From assembly GCA_944327195.1 (NCBI GenBank), contig CALVGV010000002.1, positions 14,337 to 78,336 of the forward strand: a stretch of DNA of 64,000 bases, read 5' to 3'. Source of the stretch: an uncultured Limosilactobacillus sp. Lineage in GTDB: Bacteria > Bacillota > Bacilli > Lactobacillales > Lactobacillaceae. The notes below the pieces were generated by a model that was not told the origin of the DNA, searched no databases, and was given only the letters and a program-made list of their open reading frames with translations. Of the stretch, positions 215 through 61,285 are shown piece by piece (the first letter of the stretch is position 1; the number at the start of each line of letters is the position of its first letter). The position numbers and the translations under genes were made by a program.

Positions 215-370
215 TGGGCCTCCACTCCGGAAAATTGCGGGCCGTGACGATGGTGGGCACAACTTTGAGCCCCTCCGGGTCTCAAAGCTTGGCCTTTCAC
301 TAGGCGGTAAACCGCCAAGTGAAATTTCACCATCTTGGCCCGCATTTTCCTCCGTTCCGGTCCGGCAACA
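215..370 (+). repeat. Structured palindromic intergenic repeat, copy A (subtype 1)
   Basis: About 90% identical by eye to 3510-3667. Internal helices: GGAAAATTGCGGGCC/GGCCCGCATTTTCC, GATGGTG/CACCATC, CTTTGAG-N11-CTCAAAG, and CACTAGGCGG-TAAA-CCGCCAAGTG. Confidence 0.8.
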
Positions 371-433
371 GAGCGTTGCGAATGCAACTGCTTGTGAAAA
401 GGCACCAACCACCGCAAGTTGTGATCGTAGACG

Positions 434-448
434 GGTGAATAATTCACC
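434..448. promoter_or_regulatory. Perfect 7-1-7 inverted repeat GGTGAAT-A-ATTCACC (operator-like)
   Basis: Read directly from the sequence. It lies between repeat copies A and B. The 7-1-7 architecture resembles Fur-family boxes but the sequence matches no consensus I know. Confidence 0.25.
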
Positions 449-560
449 ATGCACATCACTGGAGTAATTTTCTTGTGAGAAACCGCGGCTCAGTTCCACA
501 CGGTGGAAGAGAAACGTGGTGTCTCCCGCCCTTCGCTGCCCCGATTCACCACCGCTGCTG

Positions 561-710
561 GGCCGGAGGGGAGTAGACCCGGGAGCTCAGGGGTGAAATT
601 GTTCTTGGCGATTTATCGCCTAGAACAAGGCCGAGCTTGAAGACCCTAGAGGGGGCTTCAAGTCGTGCCCACCCCGTTCCAGTCTCCCGGAAGCTACTCC
701 CCGGAGGCCC
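561..710 (-). repeat. Structured palindromic intergenic repeat, copy B (subtype 2, inverted relative to A)
   Basis: Collinear with 58202-58351. Helices: GGGGAGTAG/CTACTCCCC, CCCGGGAG/CTCCCGG, GGGGTG/CACCCC, CTTGAAG/CTTCAAG, and TTCTTGGCGAT/ATCGCCTAGAA. Confidence 0.8.
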
Positions 711-2219: not shown

Positions 2220-3506
2220 ATGGATACCACCATCCCTACGGCCGAACAGGTCATCATCATCGGGCTCGATAACGACCAGCCCGACTATCAGTATTCAATG
2301 ACGGAACTAAAGGAGCTGGCCGAGGCCGACCAGCTCGAGGTCGTCGACCGGCTCGACCAGGCCCTCGACCGCCCCAACGCCGCCACCTACTTTGGGAGCG
2401 GCAAGGTTGAGGAACTGGCCCGCCTGGCCGAAGCGCTGCGGGTCAAGACGATCGTTGCCAACGACGAGCTCAGCCCCAGCCAGCTGCAAAACCTCGCCCA
2501 GGCCACCGGCGCCCGGATCCTCGACCGGACAGCCCTGATCCTGGAAATCTTCGCCAAGCGGGCCCAATCCCGCGAAGCCAAGATCCAGGTGCAAATCGCC
2601 CAGCTCCAGTACCGCCTGCCGCGGCTGCAAACCGCCAGCAACCAACGGCTCGACCAGCAAACCGGGTCCGGTGGGGGCGGCGGCTTCACCAACCGGGGGG
2701 CCGGGGAAACCAAGCTCGAAATGAACCACCGGGTGATCGCCAAGCAGATCAGCCACCTCCGCGCCGAACTGAAGGAAATCGAAAAGTCCGAGGCCACTAA
2801 GCGGGCCCAGCGCGACAAGGCGGCGATCCCGACCGCGGCCCTAGTTGGCTACACCAACGCCGGCAAGTCGACGATCATGAACCAGCTGATCGACCGCTAC
2901 GGGGTTTCCGACGACAAGCAGGTCTTCGAAAAGAACATGCTCTTCGCCACCCTCGACACCAGCGTTCGCCAGCTGACCCTGCCGGACCAGAAGCGGTTCC
3001 TACTCAGCGACACGGTCGGCTTCGTCTCCAAGCTCCCCCACCACCTGGTGGAGGCCTTCAAGTCGACCTTGACCGAGGCCGCCCAGGCCGACCTCCTGCT
3101 CCAGGTGATCGACTACTCCGATCCCCACTACGAAGAGATGATCCGCACCACCGAGCAGACCCTCAAGCAGATCGGCGTCGAAAACATCCCGATGGTCTAC
3201 GTCTTCAACAAGGCCGACAAGACCGAGGTCGCCTTCCCGACGATGGAGGGCGACGACCGGCTGGTGATCTCGGCCAAGGACGGCCAGTCGCTCGATCTGC
3301 TGGTCGATACGATCAAGCACCACCTCTTTGCCGACTACCAGACGGTCAAGCTTCTGGTGCCCTTCGCCGATGGCCAGGTGGTTTCCTACCTCAACGAGCA
3401 CGCCACCATCAAGAGCACCGAGTACCTGAGCGAGGGCACCAAGCTCGAGGTTGAGATTGCCCCCAAGGACCTGCCGCGGGTGGCGGAATACCAGGTTGCT
3501 GAGTAG
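2220..3506 (+). CDS. hflX: GTPase HflX
   Basis: 428 aa. HflX-type N-domain followed by G motifs GYTNAGKST, DTVGF and NKAD. Confidence 0.9.
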   Translation: MDTTIPTAEQVIIIGLDNDQPDYQYSMTELKELAEADQLEVVDRLDQALDRPNAATYFGSGKVEELARLAEALRVKTIVANDELSPSQLQNLAQATGARILDRTALILEIFAKRAQSREAKIQVQIAQLQYRLPRLQTASNQRLDQQTGSGGGGGFTNRGAGETKLEMNHRVIAKQISHLRAELKEIEKSEATKRAQRDKAAIPTAALVGYTNAGKSTIMNQLIDRYGVSDDKQVFEKNMLFATLDTSVRQLTLPDQKRFLLSDTVGFVSKLPHHLVEAFKSTLTEAAQADLLLQVIDYSDPHYEEMIRTTEQTLKQIGVENIPMVYVFNKADKTEVAFPTMEGDDRLVISAKDGQSLDLLVDTIKHHLFADYQTVKLLVPFADGQVVSYLNEHATIKSTEYLSEGTKLEVEIAPKDLPRVAEYQVAE

Positions 3507-3509
3507 GCG

Positions 3510-3667
3510 GTGGCCTCCGCTCCGCGAAAATTGCGGGCCGTGACGATAGCGGGCACAACTTTGAGCCCCTCCGGGTCTCAAAGCTTGGCCTTTCACTAGG
3601 CGGGAAACCCGCCAAGTGAAATTTCGCTATCTTGACCCGCATTTTCGCTCCGCTCCGGCCGGCAACA
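3510..3667 (+). repeat. Structured palindromic intergenic repeat, copy C (subtype 1)
   Basis: Aligns over its full length with copy A. Helix 2 is GATAGCG/CGCTATC, compensatory relative to A. It starts 4 nt after the hflX stop. Confidence 0.8.
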
Positions 3668-3754: not shown

Positions 3755-3799
3755 AACGCCCCGGTTGGCTTCCTCATGAATGCCAACCGGGGCGTTTCT
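3755..3799. terminator. Bidirectional intrinsic terminator between hflX and the M20 peptidase gene
   Basis: AACGCCCCGGTTGGC-N12-GCCAACCGGGGCGTT, followed by TTTCTC on the plus strand. Confidence 0.7.
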
Positions 3800-3812: not shown

Positions 3813-4964
3813 TTATTTCAGGTATTCCGCCAGCGCCCGCTTGTAGACCTCGATGTCCTTATGGAAGGTCGCCAACTCCACGTACTCGTCGACCTGGTGG
3901 GCGGTTCGGTTGCCGGGGCCGAAGACGGCGATCGTCATCTTCGGGTTACCCTTAATCATCTCCGAGGCGTCGGTGCCGGCGGCGCTGCCGGTGACCTCAA
4001 TTTGGTGACCAAAGACCTCCTCGGCCGTTTGGTGGAGAAGGCGGTTGAAGGCCCCCTTCTCGTCAGTGACCACCGGCTCCTTTCGGCCCAGCAGCTTCAG
4101 GGCCAGCTGGGCGCCGCGGGCCTCGTTTACCTCCGTAATCAGCTCTTCCAGCTTGGCCAGAATCTCAGCGTTTGGCTCCTCGGGGATCGTCCGCACCTTC
4201 ATGTAGAGGGCGGCGGTGCTTGGCACCGAGTTGAGCTGCTGGCCACCCTCGATCTTGGTGATCACCGGAATCGTCTTCCCCAGGGCCGGGTTGCTTTTGC
4301 CGAGGGTGGCGAAGTAGGCCGTCTGCCGTTGGTAGTAGTCCATTAGCGGCTCGATCGCGTTGTAGCCCAGCTGGGGCATCGAGCTGTGGGCGGCCTTGCC
4401 CTTGGAAGTGACGGCGTAGGTCAGCGATCCCTTGTTGGCGCAGTTGAGCTGGCCCATCGAGGGCTCGGCCAAGATCATCGCGTCAACGTCGCTCAGGTAG
4501 CCGGCCCTGGTGAAGGCTTGCGCCCCCTGCATGTGGTTGCGCGGACTGGATTCCTCGGCGATCGTCACCAGCAGCTTGACCTTGCCCGCCAGTGGGGCCT
4601 GCTCGGCCAACTCGAACATGGCGATGCACTCGGCGGCCAGGCCGCCCTTCATGTCGGTGGTGCCGCGGCCGTACATCCTGCCGTCGCGGACCTCGGCGCC
4701 GAGCGGCTGGTGGTGCCACTTTTTGACGTCGCCGAGGGCCACCACGTCCTCGTGCCCTTCCAGGGCGACCACCCGGCCGCTTTGCCCGGAGCCGATCTCG
4801 GCGTAGAAGTTGCTGCGACCGTCCTCGACCGGCAGGAGGCGGTTGGTGATCCCGCGGGCGGTGAACTCCCTTTGCAGGAAGTGGGCCACCCGGTCCTCGT
4901 GACCGCCGACCGTGTCGAGTTGAATGAGGTCGGCCAGGAATTGTTCGCGTGCTGCTTTGTCCAT
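3813..4964 (-). CDS. M20-family metallopeptidase (ArgE/DapE-type deacylase)
   Basis: 383 aa. Contains HEDVV, GRGTTDMKGG and the dimerisation-domain layout typical of M20. RBS GAGAGGGGA lies 6 nt upstream. A paralog sits at 56733-57869. Confidence 0.8.
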   Translation of the reverse strand: MDKAAREQFLADLIQLDTVGGHEDRVAHFLQREFTARGITNRLLPVEDGRSNFYAEIGSGQSGRVVALEGHEDVVALGDVKKWHHQPLGAEVRDGRMYGRGTTDMKGGLAAECIAMFELAEQAPLAGKVKLLVTIAEESSPRNHMQGAQAFTRAGYLSDVDAMILAEPSMGQLNCANKGSLTYAVTSKGKAAHSSMPQLGYNAIEPLMDYYQRQTAYFATLGKSNPALGKTIPVITKIEGGQQLNSVPSTAALYMKVRTIPEEPNAEILAKLEELITEVNEARGAQLALKLLGRKEPVVTDEKGAFNRLLHQTAEEVFGHQIEVTGSAAGTDASEMIKGNPKMTIAVFGPGNRTAHQVDEYVELATFHKDIEVYKRALAEYLK

Positions 4965-5098: not shown

Positions 5099-7573
5099 CT
5101 AAACCGTTTGGTCGCGGTCTTGCAGGTACATTCCGTCGTCGTCCTTTTCCTCACCAAGCAATTCCTGGTTGTTGTCCAACTCGGACTTGCCGGCGAAGTG
5201 GTGCTTTTGCAGCCAGATCATCGACAGCAGGGTCAGCAGGGAGAAGACGATCGCGATCCCGGCGAGCACGCTGTTGCAGAAGGCAACGTAGTGGTCACCG
5301 AGCCCACCGGAAATCCCGTTCCGCAGGCCGAGGATCGAGTAGGTCATCGGCAGGTACCAGTGGATGACGTTGAAGAACTTCATCGTCACTTCCATCGGGA
5401 AGGTCCCACCGGAACCACCGAGTTGCAGCATCAGCAGAACCATCGCAATGAAGCGGCCGACGTTGTCGAAGGTCATCGACAGGAACATGACCACGGCGAA
5501 GGCCGCAAAGCCGAAGAGGACCAGGGTCAGGAAGAAGGATGGCACCAGCTTGACGGTCAGGCCGCACGCCATCATGACGCCCCCTTCAATCAGGGCCATT
5601 GCGGCGGCGATCACGGCCTCAACGGCGATCTTGCTTGCCCACCAGGCAGAGGCGCGCCGTTCTTGCAGGGCCACCCGCCGGATTGGGTAAACAAAGTTGA
5701 AGGTAACCGCCCCAACATAGAGGGCCACCGAGAGCACGTACGGTGCCAGGGCGTGGCCGTAGTTTGGCACATTGGTGTACTTCTTGTGGGTCAGCTTGGT
5801 TGGGCTGGCAATCATGTTGGCCGTCTTGTTGGAGGTGTTGATCGAGTTGACCTGCTTTGCCCCCTTGGTCAACTTGGTGGCCAACTTACCGGCGCCGGCG
5901 TTCAGCTGGGTGATCCCGGAAACGATTTGCGGCGTGTTGGCGGCCAGTTGACTGGTCCCACTAGCCAGTTGGGCGACGCCGGAAACCAGCGACGGCACTT
6001 GGCTGTTGAGGGTGTTCAGGCTGGAAGCCAGGGTGTTGGCCCCGCTGGTCAGCTGACTGGAGCTGGCGTTGAGGGTGTTGGCCCCGCTTGCCGCCTGGCT
6101 AACCCCGGTGGTGTATTGGGAAACCCCGGAGTTGAGGCTAGCCGCCCCGGAAGCCAGTTGGCTGGTGGCCGTCTGGAGCTCGGAGGCCAGGGTCGGCATC
6201 GAGGACAGGGTTGAGCTGTAGGAGTTCAACTGGGTCATCAGACTGTTGGCCTGAGTAAGGACACCTTCTGCACTCTTCAGTGTCTCCTCCATACTGTCGA
6301 GTTGATCGATGTTCGTCTTCAACGATGACATGCTAGAGGTCAGCGACGTCATGCTAGACGAGATCTTGTTCGAAATTTGCGTTTGAGCGGCTGCGTTTTG
6401 CGATGCCGCAGTTGCTAAGGCCGAGAGTTGACTCTTCATCGTAGCATCAGTAGTGCTATTAGCTAACGCATTGAGTTGACTAGCAATGGTCTCATCATTG
6501 TTAGCGGTCGTGCTTAGTGCATCCGTTAGCTGCTTTTTACTGCTTGAAACGGTTTGAGCCGTCGTTGATAACTCACTCGCACTATCGCTTGCCGACGAAA
6601 GAGCCGTCTCGGCTGTTTCTAGCCCGCTACTCAGCGAGTTCAGGCCGCTTTGCAGCTGTTGGGCCTGCTGGAGGGCGCTCATGATCCCGGTGAAGTTGAT
6701 GCTCCCCAGCGAGGAGGAGACGGTGCTGTTCAGCTCACTCGCACCGGAGGCCAGTTGGCTCGCACCGGAGTTCAGCGTGCTCGAGCTGGAGTTGAGGGTG
6801 TTGAGCCCGCTGGTCAGCGAGCTAACCCCACTGGTGTAGGTGGTCAAGCCCGAAGCCAACTGGCTCCCGCCGGAGGCCAGTTGGCTCGCACCGGAGCTCA
6901 GCGAGCTGACACTGGAGTTGAGCGTCTGCATCCCCGAGTTCACCTGGTAAACCCCGCTGGCGTAAGAGTTCATCCCACTTGCCAGCGAGCTGGTCCCGGA
7001 GGAGATTTGCCCGGCCCCACTGGCGGCGGTCTTCATCCCCTTGCCGACCTTCTTGAGGGCGGTAAAGGTGGCCTTGGCGTAGGCCTTGGTTACCTGGGTG
7101 CGAATTGCCTGGTTAACCTTGATCATCCCCAGGTCGCTGATCACCTCGGCGATGTAGTTCAAAGACCCGTTCGTCTCGTACTGGAGCTTCATCTTCTTCG
7201 GGTTCTTGTTCATCACCGTGGTGGCGTTCTTCGAGAAGTTCTTCGGGATGGTAACCACCGTGTAGTACTTGCGGTGGTGTAGGCCGTACTTGGCCTTCTT
7301 GGCCGACACGAATTCCCACTTGAAGGAATCATTCTTCTTCAGGTTCTTCACCGTGTCGCGACCCACCGCCAGCACCTTCCCCTGGTACTCAACCGGCTTG
7401 TCCTTGTTCACGACGGCCACCGGTAGGTTCTCGGTGCTCCCGTACGGGTCCCAAACCGACTTCAGGAAGAAGATACTATATAGGAATGGAAGAAAACAAA
7501 TAACAATACATGAGATCCGCAGGAGTTTGTTGCGCCAAATGTGGCCAAACTCTGCCTTAATCATTTCCCACAT
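5099..7573 (-). CDS. YhgE/Pip domain-containing membrane protein
   Basis: 824 aa. N-terminal TM helix plus VAVVNKDKP. A long Ser/Thr/Ala/Leu-rich repeat region (LASG..SQL motifs) is followed by a C-terminal ABC-2-like multi-TM domain. Confidence 0.8.
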   Translation of the reverse strand: MWEMIKAEFGHIWRNKLLRISCIVICFLPFLYSIFFLKSVWDPYGSTENLPVAVVNKDKPVEYQGKVLAVGRDTVKNLKKNDSFKWEFVSAKKAKYGLHHRKYYTVVTIPKNFSKNATTVMNKNPKKMKLQYETNGSLNYIAEVISDLGMIKVNQAIRTQVTKAYAKATFTALKKVGKGMKTAASGAGQISSGTSSLASGMNSYASGVYQVNSGMQTLNSSVSSLSSGASQLASGGSQLASGLTTYTSGVSSLTSGLNTLNSSSSTLNSGASQLASGASELNSTVSSSLGSINFTGIMSALQQAQQLQSGLNSLSSGLETAETALSSASDSASELSTTAQTVSSSKKQLTDALSTTANNDETIASQLNALANSTTDATMKSQLSALATAASQNAAAQTQISNKISSSMTSLTSSMSSLKTNIDQLDSMEETLKSAEGVLTQANSLMTQLNSYSSTLSSMPTLASELQTATSQLASGAASLNSGVSQYTTGVSQAASGANTLNASSSQLTSGANTLASSLNTLNSQVPSLVSGVAQLASGTSQLAANTPQIVSGITQLNAGAGKLATKLTKGAKQVNSINTSNKTANMIASPTKLTHKKYTNVPNYGHALAPYVLSVALYVGAVTFNFVYPIRRVALQERRASAWWASKIAVEAVIAAAMALIEGGVMMACGLTVKLVPSFFLTLVLFGFAAFAVVMFLSMTFDNVGRFIAMVLLMLQLGGSGGTFPMEVTMKFFNVIHWYLPMTYSILGLRNGISGGLGDHYVAFCNSVLAGIAIVFSLLTLLSMIWLQKHHFAGKSELDNNQELLGEEKDDDGMYLQDRDQTV

Positions 7574-11613: not shown

Positions 11614-12477
11614 TTAATAGCGGCCGGCCCGGCTAGTCGGCTTGGCCTCGTCTTCCTTTTCCTTGTAGGCGAGGAAGGCCTGGAGGCCGAAGTCGCCGTC
11701 GGTCAAAATCGTCGTGTCGCGGCGGCCGGCAATCTTGCGCGGCCCGCCGGTGACGAAGAGCTGGGCCAGGTAGAGGCGGTACTGCTGGCGGGCGGCGTGG
11801 GCGTCGGTCAGGCCAACCTTGGTGATGTGGCCGACCTTGACCTTCTCCATCTCGTTGATCCCGGCGTAGATCTCCAAGCGGTGGCGGCGCGGTTCATGCA
11901 CCAGCTCGTAGTAGGGCAGGGTCTGACCCTGGTTTAAGGCCATCACCGGCTGGCGGGTCTCGCGGTACTCGCTGAGGATCTGCTCCTCACTCTTGCCGTC
12001 GTACTCGGCGAAGAGCACCTTGTCGGCCACCAGCTGGTCCACCAGGTTGCGCAGGTTCTTCTGCTCGGTCGCGTCGATCGCCACGTTGGCCTCGACCGTG
12101 TCCTGGTCGCTGTAGTAGCCGTTGGCCTGGTTGAGGTGCTGGCGGCCGCCGGCGCGGCGGCGCGGCATCTTGCCGGTTTCGGCGTCCGGCGCCGTCCCGG
12201 TCACCTTGATCAGCCAGGGGGACAAGAAGTCCAGCCGCGAGGTCCGGTTCAGGAAGTAGTAGACCGCGTTTAGGTAGAGGTAGTAGGTCAAAAGGACCAC
12301 CGCCAAGAAGTAGAGGAAGCCCCGCATCCAGGCCTTGTTCATCAACAGGCGGGCGGTGACGTAGATCAGGTAACCATCCCCGAGGAAGGCGATGATCACG
12401 TAGATCTTGTTCTTTAGCTTCGGCTTGATGTTGAAGTAGCTCAGCGAGCTATTGATCATGTCGAGGAAACTAAACAT
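11614..12477 (-). CDS. Hypothetical membrane protein (N-terminal TM helices plus a soluble C-terminal domain)
   Basis: 287 aa ORF with host-like codon usage. I recognise no family motif. Confidence 0.6.
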   Translation of the reverse strand: MFSFLDMINSSLSYFNIKPKLKNKIYVIIAFLGDGYLIYVTARLLMNKAWMRGFLYFLAVVLLTYYLYLNAVYYFLNRTSRLDFLSPWLIKVTGTAPDAETGKMPRRRAGGRQHLNQANGYYSDQDTVEANVAIDATEQKNLRNLVDQLVADKVLFAEYDGKSEEQILSEYRETRQPVMALNQGQTLPYYELVHEPRRHRLEIYAGINEMEKVKVGHITKVGLTDAHAARQQYRLYLAQLFVTGGPRKIAGRRDTTILTDGDFGLQAFLAYKEKEDEAKPTSRAGRY

Positions 12478-12488
12478 GCCTTCACCCC

Positions 12489-12956
12489 CTAGTCGCTGGT
12501 CGTCGTGGTGGTGCTATCGCCACCGGTGCTGGTCGTCGAATCGGTGCTGTTGGTCGTGGTCGACGAGGCCGAGCTACTGTTGTTATTGGTCGTCGTGCTG
12601 CTATTGGTCGTCGTCCCGGTGCTCGAGTTGCTGGTGGTACCGGTGGTGCTGTTGCCGGTGCTCTTGGTAGTCGACGAGCTGGTCTTGCTTGCCGAACTCT
12701 CGTCGGTGTCGGTCCCCGATTCGGACGAAGACTTGTCGCTAGCACTGTCGCTGCTGGTCTTGCTACTCTTGTCGCTATCTCCGCTAGCGGATGCGCTTGA
12801 GCCACTGACCGTGCTGGTGGTGCTCGAGCTAGTCGAGGTTACCTTGGCCCCCTCACTTGTGTGGGTCGTTTTGTTCACAACCACGTTGGTTGCCCCGAGG
12901 GCCAGGACCAACGAAACTAAGGCAAAGGGCGTTACGAACGGTGGGGTCTTTGCCAT
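12489..12956 (-). CDS. Secreted Ser/Thr-rich low-complexity protein
   Basis: 155 aa. Signal-peptide-like N-terminus (MAKTPPFVTPFALVSLVLALGA), then about 110 aa composed almost entirely of S/T/N/D/G/K. No LPXTG motif and no lipobox Cys. Confidence 0.6.
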   Translation of the reverse strand: MAKTPPFVTPFALVSLVLALGATNVVVNKTTHTSEGAKVTSTSSSTTSTVSGSSASASGDSDKSSKTSSDSASDKSSSESGTDTDESSASKTSSSTTKSTGNSTTGTTSNSSTGTTTNSSTTTNNNSSSASSTTTNSTDSTTSTGGDSTTTTTSD

Positions 12957-14071: not shown

Positions 14072-14487
14072 CAGCGGTCGCCCAGGTGGGCAGCCACCTG
14101 GTCAAGCAGGTCCTTGAGGTTGTCGTAGGTCAACCGTTGGCGGGCCGCCTGGTAGGGAAGCCAGGCGTAGTCTTTGATCTCTTCCTTTTGACGGCTGATC
14201 TCGGCCGTCCCCGTCAGTTCGGCGGTGAAGAGGGTCATTTCCTTGTGGTTGCCGTTGGGCAGGTCGTACTCGGTCTTGACCGCAAAGTTGGTGTCGATCG
14301 GCGGCTGGAGGGTGGTTTCCTCGCGGATCTCGCGCTGGGCGGTGGCGAGCAGGTCCTCGTCGCCCTCAACGTGCCCCTTGGGGAAGCCCCAGAAGTGGCC
14401 GGGGTTCATGCTTTGCAAGAGCAGGTACTCGATGCCGGTGGCGGTGCGCCGGTAAACCACGGCGCCGCTGGTGCGTTCAATTGCCAT
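14071..14487 (-). CDS. NUDIX hydrolase
   Basis: Nudix box GHVEGDEDLLATAQREIREET. ATG 14487 lies 7 nt after GGAGGAG and is preferred over the track start at 14577. The stop overlaps the kinase ATG by 1 nt. Confidence 0.8.
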   Translation of the reverse strand: MAIERTSGAVVYRRTATGIEYLLLQSMNPGHFWGFPKGHVEGDEDLLATAQREIREETTLQPPIDTNFAVKTEYDLPNGNHKEMTLFTAELTGTAEISRQKEEIKDYAWLPYQAARQRLTYDNLKDLLDQVAAHLGDR

Positions 14488-14610
14488 TATGTCTCTCCTC
14501 CTAAAAAACTCACTGCCCCTATTGTCAGCGTCCCGCCAAGGAAAAGCAATTAAATTTCCCCAATTCCCCCGCGGCAACGGAAAATTTTCCGGCCCTCGCC
14601 GCCACTCTCA

Positions 14611-24544: not shown

Positions 24545-24628
24545 ATTACCATGTCTGGGGTGCCTTTGGCTGAGATGATACCCATTAACCTGATCTGGTT
24601 AGTACCAGCGTAGGGAGACGGTCCGTTA
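24545..24628 (+). promoter_or_regulatory. TPP (THI-box) riboswitch aptamer
   Basis: CTGGGGTGC...GCTGAGA...ACCC...AACCTGATCTGGTTAGTACCAGCGTAGGGA matches the THI-element core. A terminator follows directly. Confidence 0.85.
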
Positions 24629-24650
24629 ATTCTTTGGGATAAAACCCAAA

Positions 24651-24682: not shown

Positions 24683-24725
24683 CGTGGGCATGGAAAATTG
24701 AAATCACTTTTAGGAGGCATTTTTC

Positions 24726-25295
24726 ATGCACACCACTCGTTACCACCTCAAGGACATCATCCTGCTGGCGCTGATCGGGATCATCTTCGGGGTGATCTAC
24801 TACGCCGGCGACTTCCTCTACAACGGCTTCACCATCCTCTTGACCCCCTTCGGCCTCGGCCCGATGGCCAACGACCTGACGATGGGCCTCTGGTGCATGG
24901 CCGGGCCGCTGGCCGCCATGCTCCTCCAACGGCCGGGGGCGGCCTTCTTCGGCGAATTTCTCGGCGCCGCCGGCGAAATGTTTCTCGGCGGCCAGTGGGG
25001 GGCGGCCAACCTGATCTCTGGCTTCGTCCAGGGGATCGCCACCGAGCTCGGCTTCACCTTCACCGGCTACCGGCGCTACAACTGGTTCTCGCTGACCCTG
25101 ACCACGCTGACCGCCACCCTGGTCACCTTCGGCTGGGACTGGTTCCGCAACGGCTACGCCCACTTCAGCGGCCAGCTCGACCTGCTCCTGCTTGGCGCCC
25201 GCTTCGTTTCGATCTTCCTCTTCTCCGGCGTGCTGGTAAAGCTGATCAGCAACCTGCTGGTTCGCGCCCACGTGATCAAGACCGTTCGCTCATGA
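24726..25295 (+). CDS. ykoE: ECF-type thiamine-precursor (HMP/thiamine) transporter, substrate-capture component YkoE-like
   Basis: 189-aa 6-TM protein directly behind the TPP riboswitch, with AGGAGG 8 nt upstream. ATGA overlap with the next gene. Confidence 0.7.
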   Translation: MHTTRYHLKDIILLALIGIIFGVIYYAGDFLYNGFTILLTPFGLGPMANDLTMGLWCMAGPLAAMLLQRPGAAFFGEFLGAAGEMFLGGQWGAANLISGFVQGIATELGFTFTGYRRYNWFSLTLTTLTATLVTFGWDWFRNGYAHFSGQLDLLLLGARFVSIFLFSGVLVKLISNLLVRAHVIKTVRS

Positions 25296-26680
25296 CTCAA
25301 GCAATCGACCTCCAGAAGCTCACCTTTTCCTACCAGGCGGGCAAGCCGGTCCTTGCCATCGACCAGCTGACCATCCCCCGCGGGCGGCTGATCCTCTTCT
25401 CCGGCCCCTCCGGCAGCGGCAAGAGCACCCTCTTGCGCCTGCTGGCCGGCCTCTTGCCCAAGTACGGCGGCAAGCTCGCCCCGGGGGCCCGACTGAACCT
25501 GACCGCCGGCGAGTGCGGCCTGATGTTTCAGGACCCCGGCCTCCAGTTCGCCCTCGACACCCCGCGCCACGAGCTCGAGTTCACCCTCGAAAACGACCGC
25601 GTCCCCGCCGGTGAAATCCCGGCCCGGGTGACGACCGCCCTTAAGGCCGCCGGGATTGAAGCGTTGGCCGACCGCCAGCTGGCCACCCTCTCCGGTGGGG
25701 AGCAGCAGCGGGCCGCCCTGGCCGTCCTCTTGGCCCTGGACCGGCCCCTTCTCTTACTCGACGAGCCCTTCGCCAGCCTCGATGTTGCCAACCGCCACCA
25801 GCTGATGGCCCGCCTCGTCGACCAGGTGGCCGCCGGCAAGACGGTGATCATCGCCGACCACGACCTGGCCGGCTACCGCCAGTACCGGCCGCTGGTGGTC
25901 GCCTTTGACCAGGGGAGCGCCCGCCTGCTGGAAGCGGCCGCGGCCGACCAACGGCTGGCGGCCGCCGACCGGCCGGTGACCATCCCGGCCCGGCCAACGG
26001 CTGCCTTCGCCCCCGCCCTCACCGGTGAGGACCTCCGCCTGGCCCACGGCGACCAGGAGCTACTGGTCCAGCCGACCCTGGCCCTGCCCAAGGAAAGGAT
26101 CACCCTGCTGACCGGCGAATCGGGCAGCGGCAAGTCGACCTTCCTGAGCGCCCTGGCCCGCCTTTCCCCCTACCAGGGGCAGTTGATCTACGCCGGCAAG
26201 GAGCTTTCCCGCTTCTCGCGCCGCCGCTGGGGGCGGACGGTCGGCCTGGTCTTCCAGCACGCCAGCGACCAGTTTCTCAACGTCACCGTTGGCGAGGAGC
26301 TGGCCCTCAGCCAACGCCAGGGGCGCCAGCCCTACTTCACCCCGACCAAGCTAGCGGCCGCCCTGGACCAGCTGGGGCTGGCCGGCCTCGAGGAGCGGGT
26401 GGTCTACTCACTCTCCGGCGGCCAGCAAAAGAAGCTCCAGCTGCTGGTGATGCTGATGATGGGCCAGCCGGTCCTCCTGCTCGACGAACCCTTCGCCGGC
26501 CTCGATCCCGCTTCGGTCGCAGCCGTCAAGGAGCTGATCAATGCCTGCCAGGCTTGCCAGCCGGCAACGATCGTGCTGGTTTCCCACCAGCTCGCCGGCC
26601 TGGCCGGTTGGGTCGACTGCCACCTTCACCTGACCCAGCGCTATTTCACCGATCAAGGGAGGGTTGACCATGAATCCTAG
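25292..26680 (+). CDS. ykoD: ECF/ABC transporter ATPase with duplicated ATP-binding domains (YkoD-like)
   Basis: Two Walker A motifs (GPSGSGKST, GESGSGKST) and two signatures ([16 protein letters not shown]). The start at 25292 is in frame within track ORF 24698-26680, whose upstream part overlaps ykoE and is rejected. Confidence 0.8.
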   Translation: MTQAIDLQKLTFSYQAGKPVLAIDQLTIPRGRLILFSGPSGSGKSTLLRLLAGLLPKYGGKLAPGARLNLTAGECGLMFQDPGLQFALDTPRHELEFTLENDRVPAGEIPARVTTALKAAGIEALADRQLATLSGGEQQRAALAVLLALDRPLLLLDEPFASLDVANRHQLMARLVDQVAAGKTVIIADHDLAGYRQYRPLVVAFDQGSARLLEAAAADQRLAAADRPVTIPARPTAAFAPALTGEDLRLAHGDQELLVQPTLALPKERITLLTGESGSGKSTFLSALARLSPYQGQLIYAGKELSRFSRRRWGRTVGLVFQHASDQFLNVTVGEELALSQRQGRQPYFTPTKLAAALDQLGLAGLEERVVYSLSGGQQKKLQLLVMLMMGQPVLLLDEPFAGLDPASVAAVKELINACQACQPATIVLVSHQLAGLAGWVDCHLHLTQRYFTDQGRVDHES

Positions 26681-27323
26681 TCTCAAACTCTTTTTGGTGC
26701 TGATCATCTCGGTTGAAGTTTCCTTCACCAGCAAGCTGACCGTCAACCTCCTGCTGGTCGCCGCCGGTCTGATCCTCCTGCTTTGGACCCGCCCGAGCGG
26801 CCTGACCCTGACCCACCTGCTGCTGATCCCGGCGATCCCGGCCGGCGCCCTGGCACTGACGGTCGGCGCCTTCACCCCGGCCCACGACTGGTTCTTTGCC
26901 GCCGTGCTGGCCAGCCGGGTCTACGTCTACGTCCTGCTCGGCAGCGCCGTCACCCGGACGACCCCGCCGCTGACCCTGGCCCGCTCGCTGGAGCAAAACT
27001 GCCACCTGCCGGCCAAGTTTGCCTACGGAACCCTGGCGGCGATCAACCTCCTGCCGCGGATAATCCGCGCGGTCAAGACGATCAAGGCCGCCGGCCAGAT
27101 GCGCGGGGTGACCCTCTCCTTCTGGTCGCCGCGCCTCTACTTCAAGGCGATCCTGAGCGCGATTTCCTGGGCCGACCAACTGGCCCAGGCGATGGAGTCG
27201 CACGGCTTCGTGGAGGACCAGCCGCGCAGCCAGGCCCAGGTCATCCCGCTGACCGGCCGCGACTGGGCGCTTGGCGCAAGCGCCCTCCTGCTGGTCCAGC
27301 TCGCCCTGGTGGCCCTCCCCTAA
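26664..27323 (+). CDS. ykoC: ECF transporter transmembrane (T) component (YkoC/CbiQ-like)
   Basis: 219-aa multi-TM protein overlapping the ATPase stop. ATG 26670 is an alternative start. Confidence 0.7.
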   Translation: MTMNPSLKLFLVLIISVEVSFTSKLTVNLLLVAAGLILLLWTRPSGLTLTHLLLIPAIPAGALALTVGAFTPAHDWFFAAVLASRVYVYVLLGSAVTRTTPPLTLARSLEQNCHLPAKFAYGTLAAINLLPRIIRAVKTIKAAGQMRGVTLSFWSPRLYFKAILSAISWADQLAQAMESHGFVEDQPRSQAQVIPLTGRDWALGASALLLVQLALVALP

Positions 27324-39995: not shown

Positions 39996-40565
39996 TTATT
40001 CTTGCTTGGCCTGGCTCATCAGCCCCCGCACCAGGTCGCGCACCGCGCCTAACACGGCGGTCTGGCTCACCTGGTCCTGGTGACCGATCCACCAGTGGAC
40101 CAGCTGGCTAACCGCCCCCAGGAAGAGTTGCAATTCGGGATCGACCTCCCGCTTCTTGAGGTCAACCATCAGGTGGTGCTTGAGGTCGGTCAGCCCGGCA
40201 GCCAAACTGGTCGTCAAGAGCTGGCTGGCCACCGTGCTGGCGGTGAGGTGGCGGATCAGGGCGGGGTTGGCCTGAACAAAGGCCAGCGCCTGCTTGGTGA
40301 TCGCCAGGTAGTAGTCCTCCGGCGTCGCCCCCTTCGCCAGCGGAGAGGCAACGAAGGTCCGCCGCTTCTCGGCCACCAGGAAGCGCCAAAAGTCGTCCTT
40401 GTCTTCAAAGTGGCTATAGAAGGTCGCCGTCCGGGTTTGGGCCCGCCGGCAGAGGGCGGTGACGGTGATCTTCTCGTAGCTGGTTTCGGCCAGCAGGTCC
40501 TCAAAGGCGGCCACCAGGGCGGTGTAGGTCTTCTCGGTCCGCAGGTCGCCCCGCTTGGTCTTCAT
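39996..40565 (-). CDS. TetR/AcrR family transcriptional regulator
   Basis: TetR HTH (ITVTALCRRAQTRTATFYSHF). It starts 3 nt after the stop of the lipocalin-like gene, so the two form an operon. Confidence 0.85.
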   Translation of the reverse strand: MKTKRGDLRTEKTYTALVAAFEDLLAETSYEKITVTALCRRAQTRTATFYSHFEDKDDFWRFLVAEKRRTFVASPLAKGATPEDYYLAITKQALAFVQANPALIRHLTASTVASQLLTTSLAAGLTDLKHHLMVDLKKREVDPELQLFLGAVSQLVHWWIGHQDQVSQTAVLGAVRDLVRGLMSQAKQE

Positions 40566-45152: not shown

Positions 45153-45584
45153 TTAACTCCCGTGCGCATAGCGGTCAAAGCGCGCGTCGATCCCCAGGAG
45201 GTAGAAGAGGTTCTGGTTCTTCTTGCCGATTACCCGCCCCACGTTTCCGAGGCGAAAGACCCAGTAGTCGTCCTCGCACTCTTGGTAGCGCCGGCTCGCG
45301 GAAAAGGCCGGGTGCGTACTGAGGCTAACCGCCGCCTCCGGGAGTTTTTCCAGTCCCTGCCGCTTGTCGTAACCGAGGACCGTCACGATTTCATCCTGGG
45401 ACAACTGGTGGAGCCGTGAGAGGAGCTTCAACCGGACCCGCTGGTTAACCGTCTTGCTCCGGGCGTCGAGGTTGTACTTCGCGTCGCGCGTCAAAAAGGA
45501 GAGGTTGAAAGCAAAATAATCCTGGTGCTGGTGGCGGATCCGCGTCTTTTGGGTTGGTTCGGGAAAGTTGGGGTTAATTTTCAT
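45153..45584 (-). CDS. Uncharacterised 143-aa protein; candidate toxin partner of the Panacea-domain gene
   Basis: ATG 45584 (GGGGAGG 10 nt upstream) overlaps the upstream gene by 11 nt. The C-terminus YWVFRLGNVGRVIGKKNQNLFYLLGIDARFDRYAH has a RelE/HigB-like strand pattern. That resemblance is inference only. Confidence 0.5.
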   Translation of the reverse strand: MKINPNFPEPTQKTRIRHQHQDYFAFNLSFLTRDAKYNLDARSKTVNQRVRLKLLSRLHQLSQDEIVTVLGYDKRQGLEKLPEAAVSLSTHPAFSASRRYQECEDDYWVFRLGNVGRVIGKKNQNLFYLLGIDARFDRYAHGS

Positions 45585-46044
45585 CAAGCACAAACCTCCC
45601 CTGGTAGTAAGAACGAATGGCCTCGTCACTAATCACCCCACTCTGCGGGGTTTCCTTCCACGGCCGCTCGCGGTGGGTTTGGTTCATCAAATCAATCGCC
45701 GAAACGTGACCATAGACATCATACACGCTGTTGAGAAGGTCGCGCAGCTGGGGATCCTGCTGCAATTCCCGGTAGTCCGCCAGGTCCGCGGCGGTGATTT
45801 TGCCAACGATCTCGCGCTGGCCGGCATACTTGGCGTGGACCGCTTCGATTACCGGGCCGTACTTCCAGGCAACAATCCGGTTGTTGAAGAGGCGCTTCCC
45901 GGTCGTTGCCAGACTGGCCGCCTGAAAATAGTACAGCAACTTCATCGCCTTCATCTGGGTCAACACTTCCGCATTCGGGTTGGTCCGAACGTCCGCGTTG
46001 TTTTTAACCCGGAGCCAGTTTACCACCTTAAAGACGTCTACCAT
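45574..46044 (-). CDS. Panacea (DUF4065, SocA/GepA-like) domain protein; putative antitoxin
   Basis: LTQMKAMKLLYYFQAASLATTGKRLFNNRIVAWKYGPVIEAVHAKY matches the DUF4065 core pattern. ATG 46044 lies 6 nt after AGGAGGAG, and the track start at 46110 is rejected. Confidence 0.65.
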   Translation of the reverse strand: MVDVFKVVNWLRVKNNADVRTNPNAEVLTQMKAMKLLYYFQAASLATTGKRLFNNRIVAWKYGPVIEAVHAKYAGQREIVGKITAADLADYRELQQDPQLRDLLNSVYDVYGHVSAIDLMNQTHRERPWKETPQSGVISDEAIRSYYQGRFVLDEN

Positions 46045-46186
46045 GCCGATCTCCTCCTTACTACATTCACCGCTACCCTTCTTAATCAATTCTTGCCACC
46101 ATTTTATCATAGATATTCCCTAAATTCCAGTTAATTCGAAAATAAGTTTCCTTTAAAGGGTAATAAATTATATTTGTTCGCCGTTA

Positions 46187-51481: not shown

Positions 51482-52030
51482 ATGAACCTGCGAACCGAAA
51501 AAGTCTACGACGCCCTGACCACCGCCTTCGAGGAGCTGCTGACCGAAAAGTCCTTTGACCAGATCACCGTCACCGAGCTCTGCCAACGGGCCCGCACCCG
51601 GCGGGCCACCTTCTACAACCATTTCGCCGACAAGTACGCCTTCTTTCAGTTTATGATGAGGCGGCTGCGCGACCAGCTCTTCGCCGAGGCCAACCTCCCG
51701 AAGGTCCCGGCGGCGACGCCGGAGAGCCTCCACGCCCTCGTCGACGTGATCCTCTCCTTTGCCGAGCAGCACCGCCAGCTGGCCCTCTCGATCAAGAACA
51801 GCCCGCTGGCCGAGCAGATGCAGTTTTCGCTGACCAGCGAGTCGCTGGGCGAGTACGAACACCGCCTCGCCCTTGACGACCGGCTGACCGTCCTCTTCTT
51901 GCTCGGCGGGATCAACCAGTGCGGCCGCTGGTGGCTGTCCAACCCGAACGCCGTCACCCCAGAGGAGATGCGCCAGCGGCTCTACGCCCTAGTCGACCGG
52001 CTGGTGGACCAGGAGCGGGCCGAAAAGTGA
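51482..52030 (+). CDS. TetR/AcrR family transcriptional regulator
   Basis: TetR HTH (ITVTELCQRARTRRATFYNHF), closely resembling the HTH of the TetR at 39996-40565. Divergent from paralog 2. Confidence 0.85.
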   Translation: MNLRTEKVYDALTTAFEELLTEKSFDQITVTELCQRARTRRATFYNHFADKYAFFQFMMRRLRDQLFAEANLPKVPAATPESLHALVDVILSFAEQHRQLALSIKNSPLAEQMQFSLTSESLGEYEHRLALDDRLTVLFLLGGINQCGRWWLSNPNAVTPEEMRQRLYALVDRLVDQERAEK

Positions 52031-56732: not shown

Positions 56733-57869
56733 CTAGGCAAAGAAGCCCGTTACTAGTTGCTTGTAGGCCTCGATCGTCGCCAGGTAGGAGGAAACCGTCG
56801 TCCACTCGTCGACCTGGTGGGAGTTTTCCCAGGCGGCGGGGCCAAGGACGACCACCGGCAGGTCCGGCTGGGCCTTGACGAAGACGCTGGCGTCGGTGGC
56901 GCCGTTGATCGTCGTCAGTTGCGGTTCGGTGCCAAAGGCGGTCCGGGCCGCTTTTAGGGCGAGCTGGGCCAGCGGGCCCTCCGGAGCGGCGGTTACCGGG
57001 TAGAAGTCGTGGATCACTTCCAACTCCAGCCGCGCCCCCGGGTGGGCGGCGGCCACCTGGTCAACCAGGTCCTGCAGGCGGCCGATCACCGCCTGGTTGG
57101 AGAAGGAGGGCGTTGGCCGGACGTTGCCAGCCAGCTTGGCTGTTGCCGGCAGCGAGTTGACCTGGTCGCCCCCGGTCAGGACGGTGACGCTGTGTTGAAC
57201 GGCGCCGAGGGCCGGGTCGTGGGCGGCGTCTGCAAAGAGGGTTGCCTCTCTGGTGAAGAAGTCAACCAGCGGGGTCAGGGCGTTGACCCCGTCTTGGGGA
57301 CGGGAGGAGTGGGCGGCCTTGCCATGGCTGGTGACCTGGTAGTTGATGCTGCCGGCGTGGGCGTAAACGACCTTGCCGCCGGTGGCCTCGCCGACGACCA
57401 ACCCCGCCAGGTCACGGGCGTAGCCGGCCTCGACCAGCCGGTTGGCGCCGGGGGTGCCGTACTCCTCGCCGGCGGTGGCCAAAAGGCGGACCCGGCCCGG
57501 GAGCGCCCCGGCCTCGTGGAGCTCGATCAGGGCAAGGGCCATGGCGGCCAGGCCGCCCTTGGCGTCGGCGGCCCCGCGGCCGTAGATCCGGTCGCCGATC
57601 CGGGTGGCGGCGAAGGGCGGGTGGTGCCAGGCGGCCGGATCGCCAACGGCGACGGTGTCCATGTGGCTGGTCAGGCCCAACACGCGGTCGCCGTGGCCGG
57701 CCTCGAGAATCAGGTTGGCCCGCTGGTTACCAAAGGGGGCAACGGTGGCCGCCAGGCCGTGGCGGGCAAAGAGGGAGTGGAGGTAGTTGGCCACGGCGAG
57801 TTCGTTGCCGTTGACCGAGTGAATTTGGATTAGGTCGGAAAGCACCTGTTCTTTTTCGCGTGCGTCCAT
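56733..57869 (-). CDS. M20-family metallopeptidase (ArgE/DapE-type deacylase), paralog
   Basis: 378 aa with HMDTV and GRGAADAKGG. Collinear with 3813-4964. Confidence 0.8.
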   Translation of the reverse strand: MDAREKEQVLSDLIQIHSVNGNELAVANYLHSLFARHGLAATVAPFGNQRANLILEAGHGDRVLGLTSHMDTVAVGDPAAWHHPPFAATRIGDRIYGRGAADAKGGLAAMALALIELHEAGALPGRVRLLATAGEEYGTPGANRLVEAGYARDLAGLVVGEATGGKVVYAHAGSINYQVTSHGKAAHSSRPQDGVNALTPLVDFFTREATLFADAAHDPALGAVQHSVTVLTGGDQVNSLPATAKLAGNVRPTPSFSNQAVIGRLQDLVDQVAAAHPGARLELEVIHDFYPVTAAPEGPLAQLALKAARTAFGTEPQLTTINGATDASVFVKAQPDLPVVVLGPAAWENSHQVDEWTTVSSYLATIEAYKQLVTGFFA

Positions 57870-58002: not shown

Positions 58003-58165
58003 GCTCCGCGCTGCTGACCCGGAGTGAATGGGCAGGCCAAGATGGCGAAATTTCACTTGGCGGGTTTTCGCCTAATTGAAAGGCCGAGTTTAGAGACCCG
58101 GAAAGGAGTTTAGAATATGTCCAAACCGTTTTCCAATCTCCTGGAAGCCACGGGGCGCAGACTCC
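58003..58165 (-). repeat. Structured palindromic repeat, copy D (degenerate/chimeric)
   Basis: The 5' half matches subtype 1 (GGCCAAGATGGCGAAATTTCACTTGGCGGG). The 3' half matches subtype 2 (CCAAACCGTTTTCCAATCTCCTGGAAGCC). Several helices are broken. Confidence 0.6.
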
Positions 58166-58201: not shown

Positions 58202-58351
58202 GGCCGGAGCGGAGCAGACCCGGGAGCTCAGGGGTGAAATTTCACTTGGCGGGTTTCCCGCCTAGTGAAAGGCCAAGCTTTGAGACCCGCTAGGGGCTCA
58301 AAGTTGTGCCCACCCCGTTCCAGTCTCCCGGAAGCTGCGGAGCGGAGGCCC
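58202..58351 (-). repeat. Structured palindromic repeat, copy E (subtype 2)
   Basis: Collinear with copy B. Apical hairpin TCACTTGGCGGG-TTT-CCCGCCTAGTGA and side hairpin CTTTGAG/CTCAAAG. It ends 4 nt from the metI stop. Confidence 0.8.
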
Positions 58352-58355
58352 TACC

Positions 58356-59057
58356 CTACCGCACCTGGTGATTCAACCGCTTCGTCAGCCAGTCCCCCAC
58401 CAGTTGCACGATCAGCACCAGAATCAGGACCAGGAGAGTGGCCACCACGGTCACGTCGTTGTTGAAGCGGTTGTAGCCGTAGGCAATCGCCGTGTTCCCC
58501 AGGCCGCCGGCGCCGATCGCTCCGGCCATTGCGGTCAGACCAATCAGGGAAATCAGGGTCACCGTCGAAACCCGCACCAGTTCGGCCCGCGCCTCGGAGA
58601 GGTAGACGTCGAAGATGATGTCGAGGTTGGTGGCCCCCAGCGCCTGGGCGGCCTCAATCTTGCCGCGGTCAACGCTTTCCAGCGCCACTTCGACCTGGCG
58701 AGCAAAGAAGGGGAAGACCCCGAGCGACAACGGCACCAGGGCAGCGGTCGTCCCGATCTGGGTGCCGACGATCAGCTGGGTGAAGGGGGCGATGAAGGCC
58801 AGCAGGATGATGAAGGGGATCGCCCGGAAGAAGGAGACCACCTTGTCGCAGATGTTGAACCAAACCCGGTTGGCCAGGATGCCACCCTCCTTGGTCAGCA
58901 CCAGGGCCAGGCCGAAGACCAGCCCCAGCAGGCCGCCGATCACCGCCGGCCAAAAGGTCATGTACAGGGTCTGGAAGATCGCCGTCCCCCAGCCACTGTC
59001 GCCGCTCCAGCCGAGACTGGCCACGTTGGGCAAGTACTTGCTAATTAGTTCGCTCAT
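58356..59057 (-). CDS. metI: Methionine ABC transporter permease
   Basis: 233-aa 5-TM BPD-type permease downstream of metN in a Met T-box operon. Confidence 0.85.
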
Positions 59058-61011: not shown

Positions 61012-61285
61012 AAAAAATCGCCCCTTAGCAATGATTGCTAAAGGACGATTAATCGTGGTACCACCTTTGTTCGCCGCCTTCTCGCAAAGGCGGCCTCGCC
61101 GAGTTACGGTTACCCATAACCCTGCATTGGTAACGGGTGCAAGCCCGTCGCCGGCTAAGGATCGCCGACGCCATTCCAAGCCCATCTTCACCGGCTTGAG
61201 TTGATCCCTTTTCACCAGCCAGGGACTCTCTTGGCAACCGCCACCAGTTACTCTGCTTTTCCAAATGTTTTCGTTCCTCATTTCG
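61012..61285 (-). promoter_or_regulatory. T-box riboswitch leader, probable Met (AUG) specifier
   Basis: Read on the minus strand: AGAGUA, AG-bay AGAGAG (61231-61226), distal loop GGUGAAAA, GGA-AUG-G at 61174-61172, T-box AAAGGUGGUACCACG (61065-61054), and terminator CCUUUAGCA-N5-UGCUAAGGGG followed by a U-run. Promoter TTGACG-18-TACTAT lies at 61323-61294. Confidence 0.8.

Follow-up and report, generated by a model that had tools for sequence, protein, structure and literature searches.

A family of structure-constrained intergenic repeats in an uncultured Limosilactobacillus and other Lactobacillaceae

The 64,000-nucleotide stretch analysed here (the window: positions 14,337 to 78,336 of contig CALVGV010000002.1, assembly GCA_944327195.1) comes from an uncultured Limosilactobacillus species and carries exactly five copies, A to E, of a non-coding, imperfectly palindromic repeat of about 150 bp. 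Copies A (217-362, + strand, 146 bp, bounded by GGCC...GGTC) and B (561-709, - strand, 149 bp) lie between the divergently transcribed genes pcrA, of which the window holds the part for the N-terminus of the PcrA/UvrD helicase (1-120, -), and dedA (817-1473). The two copies are inverted and face each other, as the initial annotation of this DNA had described, across a non-repeated spacer of 198 bp (363-560) that opens with a small hairpin, GCAAC-AGAGC-GTTGC (365-379), immediately 3' of copy A. The sole promoter-like site of this region, at 762-789, is downstream of B. Copy C (3512-3660, +, 149 bp) starts 5 nt past the stop codon of hflX (TAG, 3504-3506) and has the orientation of that gene; since an inverted repeat followed by TTTCT lies at about 3755-3796, C would fall within the hflX 3' untranslated region (3'-UTR). 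Copy E (58202-58350, -, 149 bp) likewise starts 5 nt past the stop codon of metI (58356-58358, -), in the same orientation as metI. The decayed copy D (about 58016-58164, -) follows in tandem, 37 nt downstream of E and upstream of an M20 peptidase gene (56733-57869, -). A paralogue of this peptidase gene (3813-4964, -) adjoins copy C, which may be coincidence.

Three further copies, F, G and H, the last of them partial, were located on contig L001, within 9 kb of the left edge of the window. Copy F starts 7 nt after the stop codon of a GNAT gene, and copy G right at the stop codon of pcrA (L001:7001-7010). The PcrA of this host ends in ...SYQRG* exactly at G and falls 4-6 residues short of its counterparts in six other Limosilactobacillus species; the insertion of G appears to have replaced the last pcrA codons and supplied the stop. 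The sequence TACCAG, which is shared by the left flanks of C, E and G, was considered as a part of the element and rejected for pcrA, where TACCAGCGG is native coding sequence, common to L. caccae.

A hidden Markov model (HMM) built from the copies recovered only A to E from the window, with E-values of 3e-37 to 5e-49. A core pattern matched five times, against none expected from 100 shuffles, and a covariance-model search with the filters off found no sixth copy in the window. By all three measures the count of five given in the initial annotation is correct, and its coordinates were right to within a few bases. The exact bounds, set by the GGCC...GGCC ends, give lengths of 146-155 bp, with A, B, C and E at 146-149 bp. 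The covariance-model scores of the well-preserved copies are 102.1 bits for A, 112.3 for B, 106.7 for C and 119.5 for E. Repeat finding within the window recovered the A/C, C/E, A/E and D/E relationships, including a stretch of 54 nt over which C and E are 100% complementary.

The four copies A, B, C and E share one fold, an outer and a second helix with two hairpins side by side, and its z-scores relative to shuffled sequences range from -5.1 to -8.2 on either strand (A, -7.0, with a minimum free energy of -73.2 kcal/mol; B, -7.4, with -90.3 kcal/mol; C, -6.2; E, -5.1). From the outside inwards, each of these copies has a long outer stem, P1, then an internal loop, then the short helix P2, and finally a three-way junction from which the hairpins P3 and P4 emerge, giving a Y shape. 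The side hairpin P3 carries a bulged A, U and C, and P4 a conserved A.A mismatch. The P1/P2 internal loop is conserved, as are the short terminal motifs that close P1. The unit measures about 150 bp in this host and up to about 200 bp in Levilactobacillus, where many copies have an extra hairpin, so that three hairpins meet at a four-way junction.

In copy A, P1 is formed by GGAAAATTGCGGGCC/GGCCCGCATTTTCC, the internal loop by GUGACGA/CUUGG, P2 by GATGGTG/CACCATC, P3 by CTTTGAG/CTCAAAG, and P4, with its conserved A.A mismatch, by TTTCACTAGGCGG/CCGCCAAGTGAAA. In copy B the outer stem is GGGGAGTAG/CTACTCCCC and TCCGGGAG/CTCCCGGG, the internal loop CUGGAAC/CUGAG, the side hairpin CTTGAAG/CTTCAAG, and P4 GTTCTAGGCGAT/ATCGCCAAGAAC. 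The contrasting arms that had been quoted earlier, for the side hairpin (CTTTGAG/CTCAAAG against CTTGAAG/CTTCAAG), the apical hairpin (TCACTTGGCGGG/CCCGCCTAGTGA against TTCTTGGCGAT/ATCGCCTAGAA) and the outer helix (AAAATTGCGGGCC/GGCCCGCATTTT against CCCGGGAG/CTCCCGG plus GGGGAGTAG/CTACTCCCC), are all present in the sequence. Copy C is 96% identical to A over 84 nt and differs from it in P2 by two compensated pair changes (GATAGCG/CGCTATC in C). Copy E is a mosaic, with an outer stem and loop like those of B and F and a P3-P4 portion that is 100% identical to C over 54 nt. The proposal that both arms change together thus holds as a stepwise process, within the window, only in P2 of A versus C, whereas most differences are swaps of whole modules between sub-families.

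The shared architecture had been claimed for every copy, and it does not extend to D, which is still alignable to the family but has lost most of its pairing: 22 of 35 pairs are Watson-Crick, the z-scores are -2.3 and -0.05, and the covariance-model score is 26.9 bits, compared with 102-120 bits for the other four. Copy H (L001:3929-3983) is internally deleted and lacks P4. The deletion joins the short direct repeats CTTTC and ATTTC on either side of the P4 hairpin, a pattern expected of replication slippage across a palindrome. As a separate observation on the outer stem, its ends in A (217-232 and 347-362), B, C and E contain two symmetric TCC/TCC internal loops (GGCC-TCC-GC-TCC-...), in which one strand exposes CCUCC, similar to the anti-Shine-Dalgarno sequence, and the opposite strand GGAGG. 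Levilactobacillus copies, too, have recurrent CCTCC motifs close to their ends.

The helices have persisted through numerous double substitutions. Among 11 diverse copies, 94.7% of the cells of the alignment at paired positions are paired, compared with 75.8% after shuffling, and both sides have changed in 23 of 35 pairs; when the partner columns are slid, pairing drops to 31-50%. For 64 distinct copies the corresponding values are 86.7%, 63.2% and 33-42%, the observed pairing being reached by none of 500 shuffles. Double compensatory changes in this larger set affect 32 of the 35 core pairs, in 465 cells, and one-sided changes are rare relative to double changes. This is covariation of the helix type and not of the coding-sequence type. 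The outer stem P1, which lies outside the model, is complementary copy by copy, with a mean of 7.9 contiguous pairs, compared with 0.96 when the arms are taken from different copies, although its arms comprise 23 distinct sequences among 28 copies. The initial annotation had concluded from the window that structure, not sequence, is conserved, and with relatives from other genera this conclusion withstands both the shuffle and the slide controls.

Those relatives were sought in 80 pcrA loci of Lactobacillaceae with the HMM and a covariance model of P2-P4, the latter giving 67 hits across the loci. Related Limosilactobacillus genomes had been suggested as the place to look for further copies, but none of the 38 loci of other Limosilactobacillus carries one. 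The loci of Levilactobacillus are instead rich in the repeat, with up to 7 copies per 22 kb, and Secundilactobacillus oryzae has one copy. A plasmid of L. brevis carries a copy that is common to an L. plantarum plasmid; beside it lies a transposase gene of the ISLre2 family, but the copy does not form the end of this ISLre2 element, and no second copy is present at the other end. In a BLASTN search of 72,556 plasmids, copy E matched only Levilactobacillus and Lactiplantibacillus records. A metagenome scan with a looser pattern returned 19 loci, 5 of them real and all from one other human-gut bacterium, the contigs of which have about 50% GC. An exact-pattern scan of 185,579 species genomes (one per species) gave no match to the host-type core, the host being apparently absent from that collection and the core differing in other species. 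In viral contigs there were 47 chance matches, none of which was confirmed by the covariance model.

All copies are intergenic, and their placement is strongly polar with respect to genes. Where a gene ends within 90 nt of the 5' side of a copy, in the orientation of the covariance model, it is in 17 of 17 cases the 3' end of a co-oriented gene; on the other side there are only 3 gene ends within this distance, of any kind. After orthologous sites are collapsed, the contrast is about 9 loci versus 2 and only moderately significant. Of 52 copies, 45 have their model-5' side closer to a gene than their 3' side. Roughly half of the copies face the 5' end of a gene or run antisense to the local transcript. 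Among neighbouring copies no more than 450 bp apart, 16 pairs are convergent, 3 tandem and none divergent, with at least 6 independent convergent loci, and the A/B pair is one case of this recurrent arrangement. That A, the spacer and B form a composite element of about 500 bp was considered and rejected, as the spacers of 15 convergent pairs are unrelated and the partners come from different sub-families. A search for core-less 'solo shells' used a regular expression for the terminal motifs that was too strict to be informative.

Comparison of the same sites across species reveals turnover of the repeat. Downstream of pcrA, the intergenic region spans 134-153 bp in Levilactobacillus species that lack the repeat and 400-1489 bp where it occurs once or twice. 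In sister species, copies at the same site may be no more than 48-57% identical, or may be 9-10 fully compensated pairs apart, while the flanks that were measured are about 88-96% identical. In some loci, copies are nested: a complete element with its own terminal motifs lies inside the outer stem of another (L073 and L076, about 12300-12560; L058, about 14320-14560), and L074 has, at the same site as these nested copies, the same outer stem around a different core. This nesting suggests that the centre of a palindrome already in place can receive an insertion or be replaced. No conserved target or cleavage motif of 4-5 nt was found beside the ends of the copies. In the L. brevis plasmid family there is no exact empty site, the homology ending about 50 nt before the element for other reasons.

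On whether the conserved fold is one of DNA or of RNA, the findings point both ways. Watson-Crick pairs number 1653, G-U pairs 63 and A-C pairs 89, so that G-U makes up 3% of the pairs and is no commoner than A-C. Such near-pure Watson-Crick pairing is atypical of structured RNAs and agrees with a constraint that acts on both strands or at the level of DNA. Under RNA energy parameters, 32 of 36 copies fold more stably as the complement of the model strand, the mean difference being 6.6 kcal/mol. The model strand is rich in A and poor in G at its unpaired positions (A 778, C 708, G 453, T 411). Strand choice by folding energy and by the counts of G-U versus A-C gave contradictory results, and no strand was assigned. 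The P1/P2 loop CGUGAC/CUGAGCC presumably resembles a kink-turn (K-turn), with a canonical stem, a 3-nt bulge and tandem G.A/A.G pairs, on the model strand only. Judged as a match to the sequence pattern only, the K-turn is exact in the CGUGAC/CUGAGCC copies (L058, L074, L052) and approximate in copies with NYGGAAC/CUGAR, including B, E and F, while A and C (GUGACGA/CUUGG) are without the second GA, on the 3' strand, that a K-turn requires. No promoter-like or terminator-like signals are associated with the copies, and in this host no T-run indicative of an intrinsic terminator follows the element on either strand; in a second gut species, a T-rich tail, TCTTTCTTTCT, comes after the copies. Self-cleaving ribozymes of the hammerhead and twister-sister types were considered as well and rejected, their core motifs being absent by eye and without a match in Rfam.

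At gathering thresholds, Rfam 15 gave only a T-box leader and a thiamine pyrophosphate (TPP) riboswitch elsewhere in the window, and scans to an E-value of 10 over A to E and one Levilactobacillus pair gave only noise of 11-21 bits, in agreement with the earlier failure to name a matching RNA class. A full-text literature search, reviews and a systematic survey of bacterial stem-loop repeats contain no description of such a family for lactobacilli. Several families of other bacteria invite comparison. Efa-1 of Enterococcus faecalis is the EFAR of the literature, many copies of which lie near the stop codons of open reading frames (ORFs) and are co-transcribed. The Efa-1 model has 163 bp and 65 copies, all intergenic, and an adjacent pair of stem-loops is predicted on both strands (PMC2267715). 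Compared by description only, the two families share the order Lactobacillales, a similar length, the intergenic position and the paired stem-loops. Features of the lactobacillus family that PMC2267715 does not report for Efa-1 are the K-turn-like loop, the four-way variants and an outer stem that is long and hypervariable. The bcr1 repeat of the Bacillus cereus group is intergenic, multi-copy and about 150-165 bp long, with a cruciform-like RNA of two independent stem-loops (PMC3184786, PMC2267715). Again by description, the lactobacillus family differs in having no target duplication and in ends that share only GGCC. The bcr1 repeat has terminal inverted repeats and a TTTAT target duplication. 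The double hairpin of bcr1 and Efa-1 is also present in the lactobacillus family, where P1/P2 enclose P3 and P4 in the minimum-free-energy and consensus structures.

BOX of Streptococcus pneumoniae is modular and mosaic, MITE-like (miniature inverted-repeat transposable element) without the classical hallmarks, intergenic and transcribed, with stable structures (PMC3184786). BOX is a linear boxA-(boxB)n-boxC array, whereas the lactobacillus family consists of nested helices around a junction, and the two show no sequence similarity and no link in Rfam or BLAST. ERIC is an imperfect palindrome of about 127 bp, co-transcribed at the 3' ends of genes, that can alter mRNA stability (PMC3184786). 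It is a single long hairpin of Gammaproteobacteria with a TA target duplication, in contrast to the three- or four-way junction of the lactobacillus family, which has no such duplication. Compensatory substitutions were reportedly described in ERIC by Wilson and Sharp in 2006. With attC sites, the family has in common that structure is kept while sequence varies, that mismatched or bulged bases are conserved and that copies lie directly after ORFs in a fixed orientation; it differs from them in lacking the R''(RYYYAAC)/R'(GTTRRRY) core sites, a cassette array and a nearby integrase, in its GGCCTCC...CCGGCC ends and in flanking housekeeping genes. With IS200/IS605 elements it shares the lack of a target duplication. 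The left-end and right-end hairpins of IS200/IS605 resemble each other, and the lactobacillus family differs from IS200/IS605-derived palindrome-associated transposable elements (PATEs) in that P3 and P4 are unrelated in sequence, that no flanking oligonucleotide is conserved and that TnpA and TnpB are absent from the window. It also differs from REP/BIME sequences with RAYT, as its unit is branched and about 150 bp long, compared with palindromes of 20-40 nt with a GTAG-type head, and as the window encodes no Y1-transposase domain. With a length inside the MITE range of about 50-400 bp, the family conforms to MITEs in being small, non-coding and dispersed in many copies. The MITE-like reading offered by the initial annotation was right about the structured, interspersed class of ERIC/BOX type, and fails for the classical hallmarks: target-site duplications are absent, GGCC is all that the termini have in common, and neither the window nor about 15 kb of flanking contigs yielded a cognate transposase.

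Taken together, we lean towards the interpretation that these sequences are a previously uncatalogued family of structure-constrained, MITE/BOX/bcr1/Efa-1-like intergenic repeats of heterofermentative Lactobacillaceae, whose spread, in trans or by recombination, depends on the fold, and which probably have effects on the 3'-UTRs of neighbouring genes. The main threat to the novelty of the family is homology to Efa-1, with which it was compared by description only. The repeats would spread by a copy-and-replace process, through mobilisation in trans by an enzyme encoded elsewhere, through recombination between copies, or through both. This process would need the folded form, and only the lineages that keep the fold would go on proliferating, which would account for conserved structure alongside drifting sequence and for the decay of old copies. 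The near-pure Watson-Crick pairing and the equal folding of both strands indicate that the fold relevant to spread is probably a DNA hairpin or cruciform, and not a strand-specific RNA. With the model-5' end directly at the stop codon of a gene in the same orientation, many copies are likely to be co-transcribed as a large 3'-UTR structure. Orientation-dependent effects of this RNA, such as protection of the 3' end or protein binding at the K-turn-like loop, probably decide which insertions survive.

Several observations weigh against this interpretation. Direct repeats flanking the element amount to at most 0-3 nt in the 6 copies inspected, with no common sequence, and thus provide no target-site duplication. 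The two halves of the element are complementary throughout, but its extreme ends share only GGCC, and the next bases belong to the symmetric TCC/TCC loops. No candidate for a mobilising enzyme is encoded in the window or in the flanking contigs of about 15 kb. No strictly empty site with alignable flanks was found, the flanks of L056, L060 and L064 being too diverged, and among 10 metagenome contigs of the host species there is no presence/absence polymorphism and therefore no sign of current mobility. The strand tests conflict, the lower RNA folding energy belonging to the complement and the A-rich unpaired bases and K-turn-like loop to the model strand. The conserved bulges, the invariant A.A mismatch of P4 and the conserved internal loops would suit an RNA-protein complex as well as a DNA recognition site. 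Finally, the strong polarity toward the 3' ends of genes is not predicted for a purely selfish element acting at the DNA level, unless insertion or survival depends on orientation.

This polarity would be natural for a cis-acting structured RNA module of mRNA 3' ends, read from the model strand, that blocks 3'-to-5' exonucleases or serves as a barrier in processing or termination, perhaps with an L7Ae-type protein on the K-turn-like loop; its multiplicity would then be secondary. We consider such a module, the chief rival, unlikely as the main explanation, though with a probability that is far from negligible. Copies C, E, F and G start 0-7 nt after the stop codons of hflX, metI, the GNAT gene and pcrA, all co-oriented, in line with the 17 of 17 gene ends near the model-5' side that are co-oriented 3' ends, and in L073, L074 and L076 the element follows the stop codon of pcrA and precedes the terminator. 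The model strand is also the one with A-rich, G-poor unpaired positions and the one on which the CGUGAC/CUGAGCC loops fit, by pattern recognition, the K-turn. This reading has difficulty with A and B, which lie between divergent genes, upstream of the only recognisable promoter (762-789), and are not obviously in a transcript, and with the half or so of all copies that face a gene 5' end or lie antisense. Strand-specific selection on RNA is also hard to reconcile with a G-U fraction of 3%, no higher than that of A-C, as is a K-turn with the lack of the 3'-strand GA in A and C, and a conserved function with positional orthologues that are replaced and decayed copies that are tolerated. The more radical RNA alternative, that of independent small-RNA genes forming a multi-copy family with their own promoters, seems to us very improbable. 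It would account for very stable folds with a conserved junction and loops, but there are no promoter- or terminator-like signals and no U-tract after either strand, the copies abut stop codons, decayed and internally deleted copies exist, and no Rfam family matches. The structured-RNA option raised in the initial annotation is accordingly unlikely in the sense of independent RNA genes, the rarity of G-U pairs adding to the missing promoters and terminators.

A DNA-level alternative is that the repeats are remnants or non-autonomous derivatives of a single-strand-DNA transposon (a PATE of IS200/IS605 type, or RAYT/REP-type) or an attC-like folded site, in which a HUH transposase or a tyrosine recombinase reads hairpins on one strand. 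The lack of target-site duplications, the near-pure Watson-Crick pairing of helices whose sequence varies while structure is conserved, the invariance of the A.A mismatch and the single-base bulges, the position of copies directly after ORFs in fixed orientation, as for attC sites, and the nesting of some copies in the stem of another all agree with this view. We hold it to be doubtful, since genes for TnpA, TnpB, RAYT or an integrase are absent from the window and the flanking contigs, no 4-5-nt target or cleavage motif is conserved beside the ends, and P3 and P4 are dissimilar, unlike the left-end and right-end hairpins of IS200/IS605. Convergent copies 110-320 bp apart exclude a single orientation relative to the replication strand, and RYYYAAC/GTTRRRY core sites and a cassette array are lacking. 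A bolder proposal, to which we assign a similarly low likelihood, sees in the family a new kind of mobile structured element that needs no conventional transposase for its spread, in which a strand-specific three- or four-way junction containing a K-turn would be copied just after stop codons and into the centres of existing palindromes, older copies among them, by way of a hairpin-targeted single-strand DNA or RNA intermediate. Such hairpin-targeted copying would account for the fixed polarity toward genes, the exclusively convergent pairs, the nested copies and the complementary but hypervariable outer stems. Fold-dependent spread in trans or by recombination remains the interpretation that we prefer.

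The other content of the window helps to place the host. The window has a GC content of 60.5%, its proteins match only short gut-metagenome contigs, and the host PcrA shares 77% identity with its counterpart in Limosilactobacillus ingluviei and 76% with the one in L. alvi. A phosphoketolase gene, the T-box leader and the TPP riboswitch are consistent with a heterofermentative lactobacillus. The T-box leader (61038-61272, -), matched over its full length at 108.6 bits, precedes the metQ-metN-metI operon (60991 to 58356, -), after the last gene of which come copies E and D. Downstream of the TPP riboswitch (24546-24633, +; 64.6 bits) come the genes of a double ABC-ATPase (24698-26680) and a CbiQ-type protein (26664-27323), which probably encode a thiamine uptake system of the energy-coupling factor (ECF) type. 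The genes of the window contain, by Pfam, only housekeeping, transport and regulatory domains and no transposase, recombinase or HUH domains, as the initial annotation had noted for transposases. Two TetR-family paralogues (39996-40565, -, and 51482-52030, +) explain the longest inverted repeat of the window (40390-40546/51486-51642, 75% complementary). A gene with a SocA/Panacea antitoxin domain (45574-46110) overlaps a 158-residue ORF without a Pfam match (45153-45629), both on the - strand, and the two are a candidate toxin-antitoxin pair. Three direct repeats of 126 nt (6008-6133, 6731-6856 and 6857-6982; 63-71% identical) within an 824-residue ABC2_membrane_3 gene (5099-7573, -) probably represent a repeat within the protein. 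Outside the window on its right (L093-L095, about 2.5-5 kb; L092:7563-7913) there are two or three paralogues of PDDEXK_2, an Rpn-like nuclease, and a fragment of a DDE_Tnp_1 transposase, near which no copies of the repeat were found.

If confirmed, the repeats described here would constitute a substantial uncatalogued family of structured repeats in Lactobacillaceae. At some Levilactobacillus loci there is roughly one copy per 3 kb, which means that much of the intergenic space is taken up by repeats, and the repeats probably break up metagenome assemblies, the present host species being known only as short contigs. They can also change the ends of genes, as illustrated by the host PcrA, 4-6 residues shorter and ending exactly where a copy starts, and the family is a ready marker for strain typing. 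In food and gut lactobacilli, many copies are likely to be transcribed together with housekeeping genes, as large structures of the 3'-UTR, and could there influence the stability of the mRNA. The combination of Watson-Crick compensation, polarity, convergence and turnover at fixed sites makes the family a good system for asking whether such repeats are kept folded for their own spread or for the benefit of the host.

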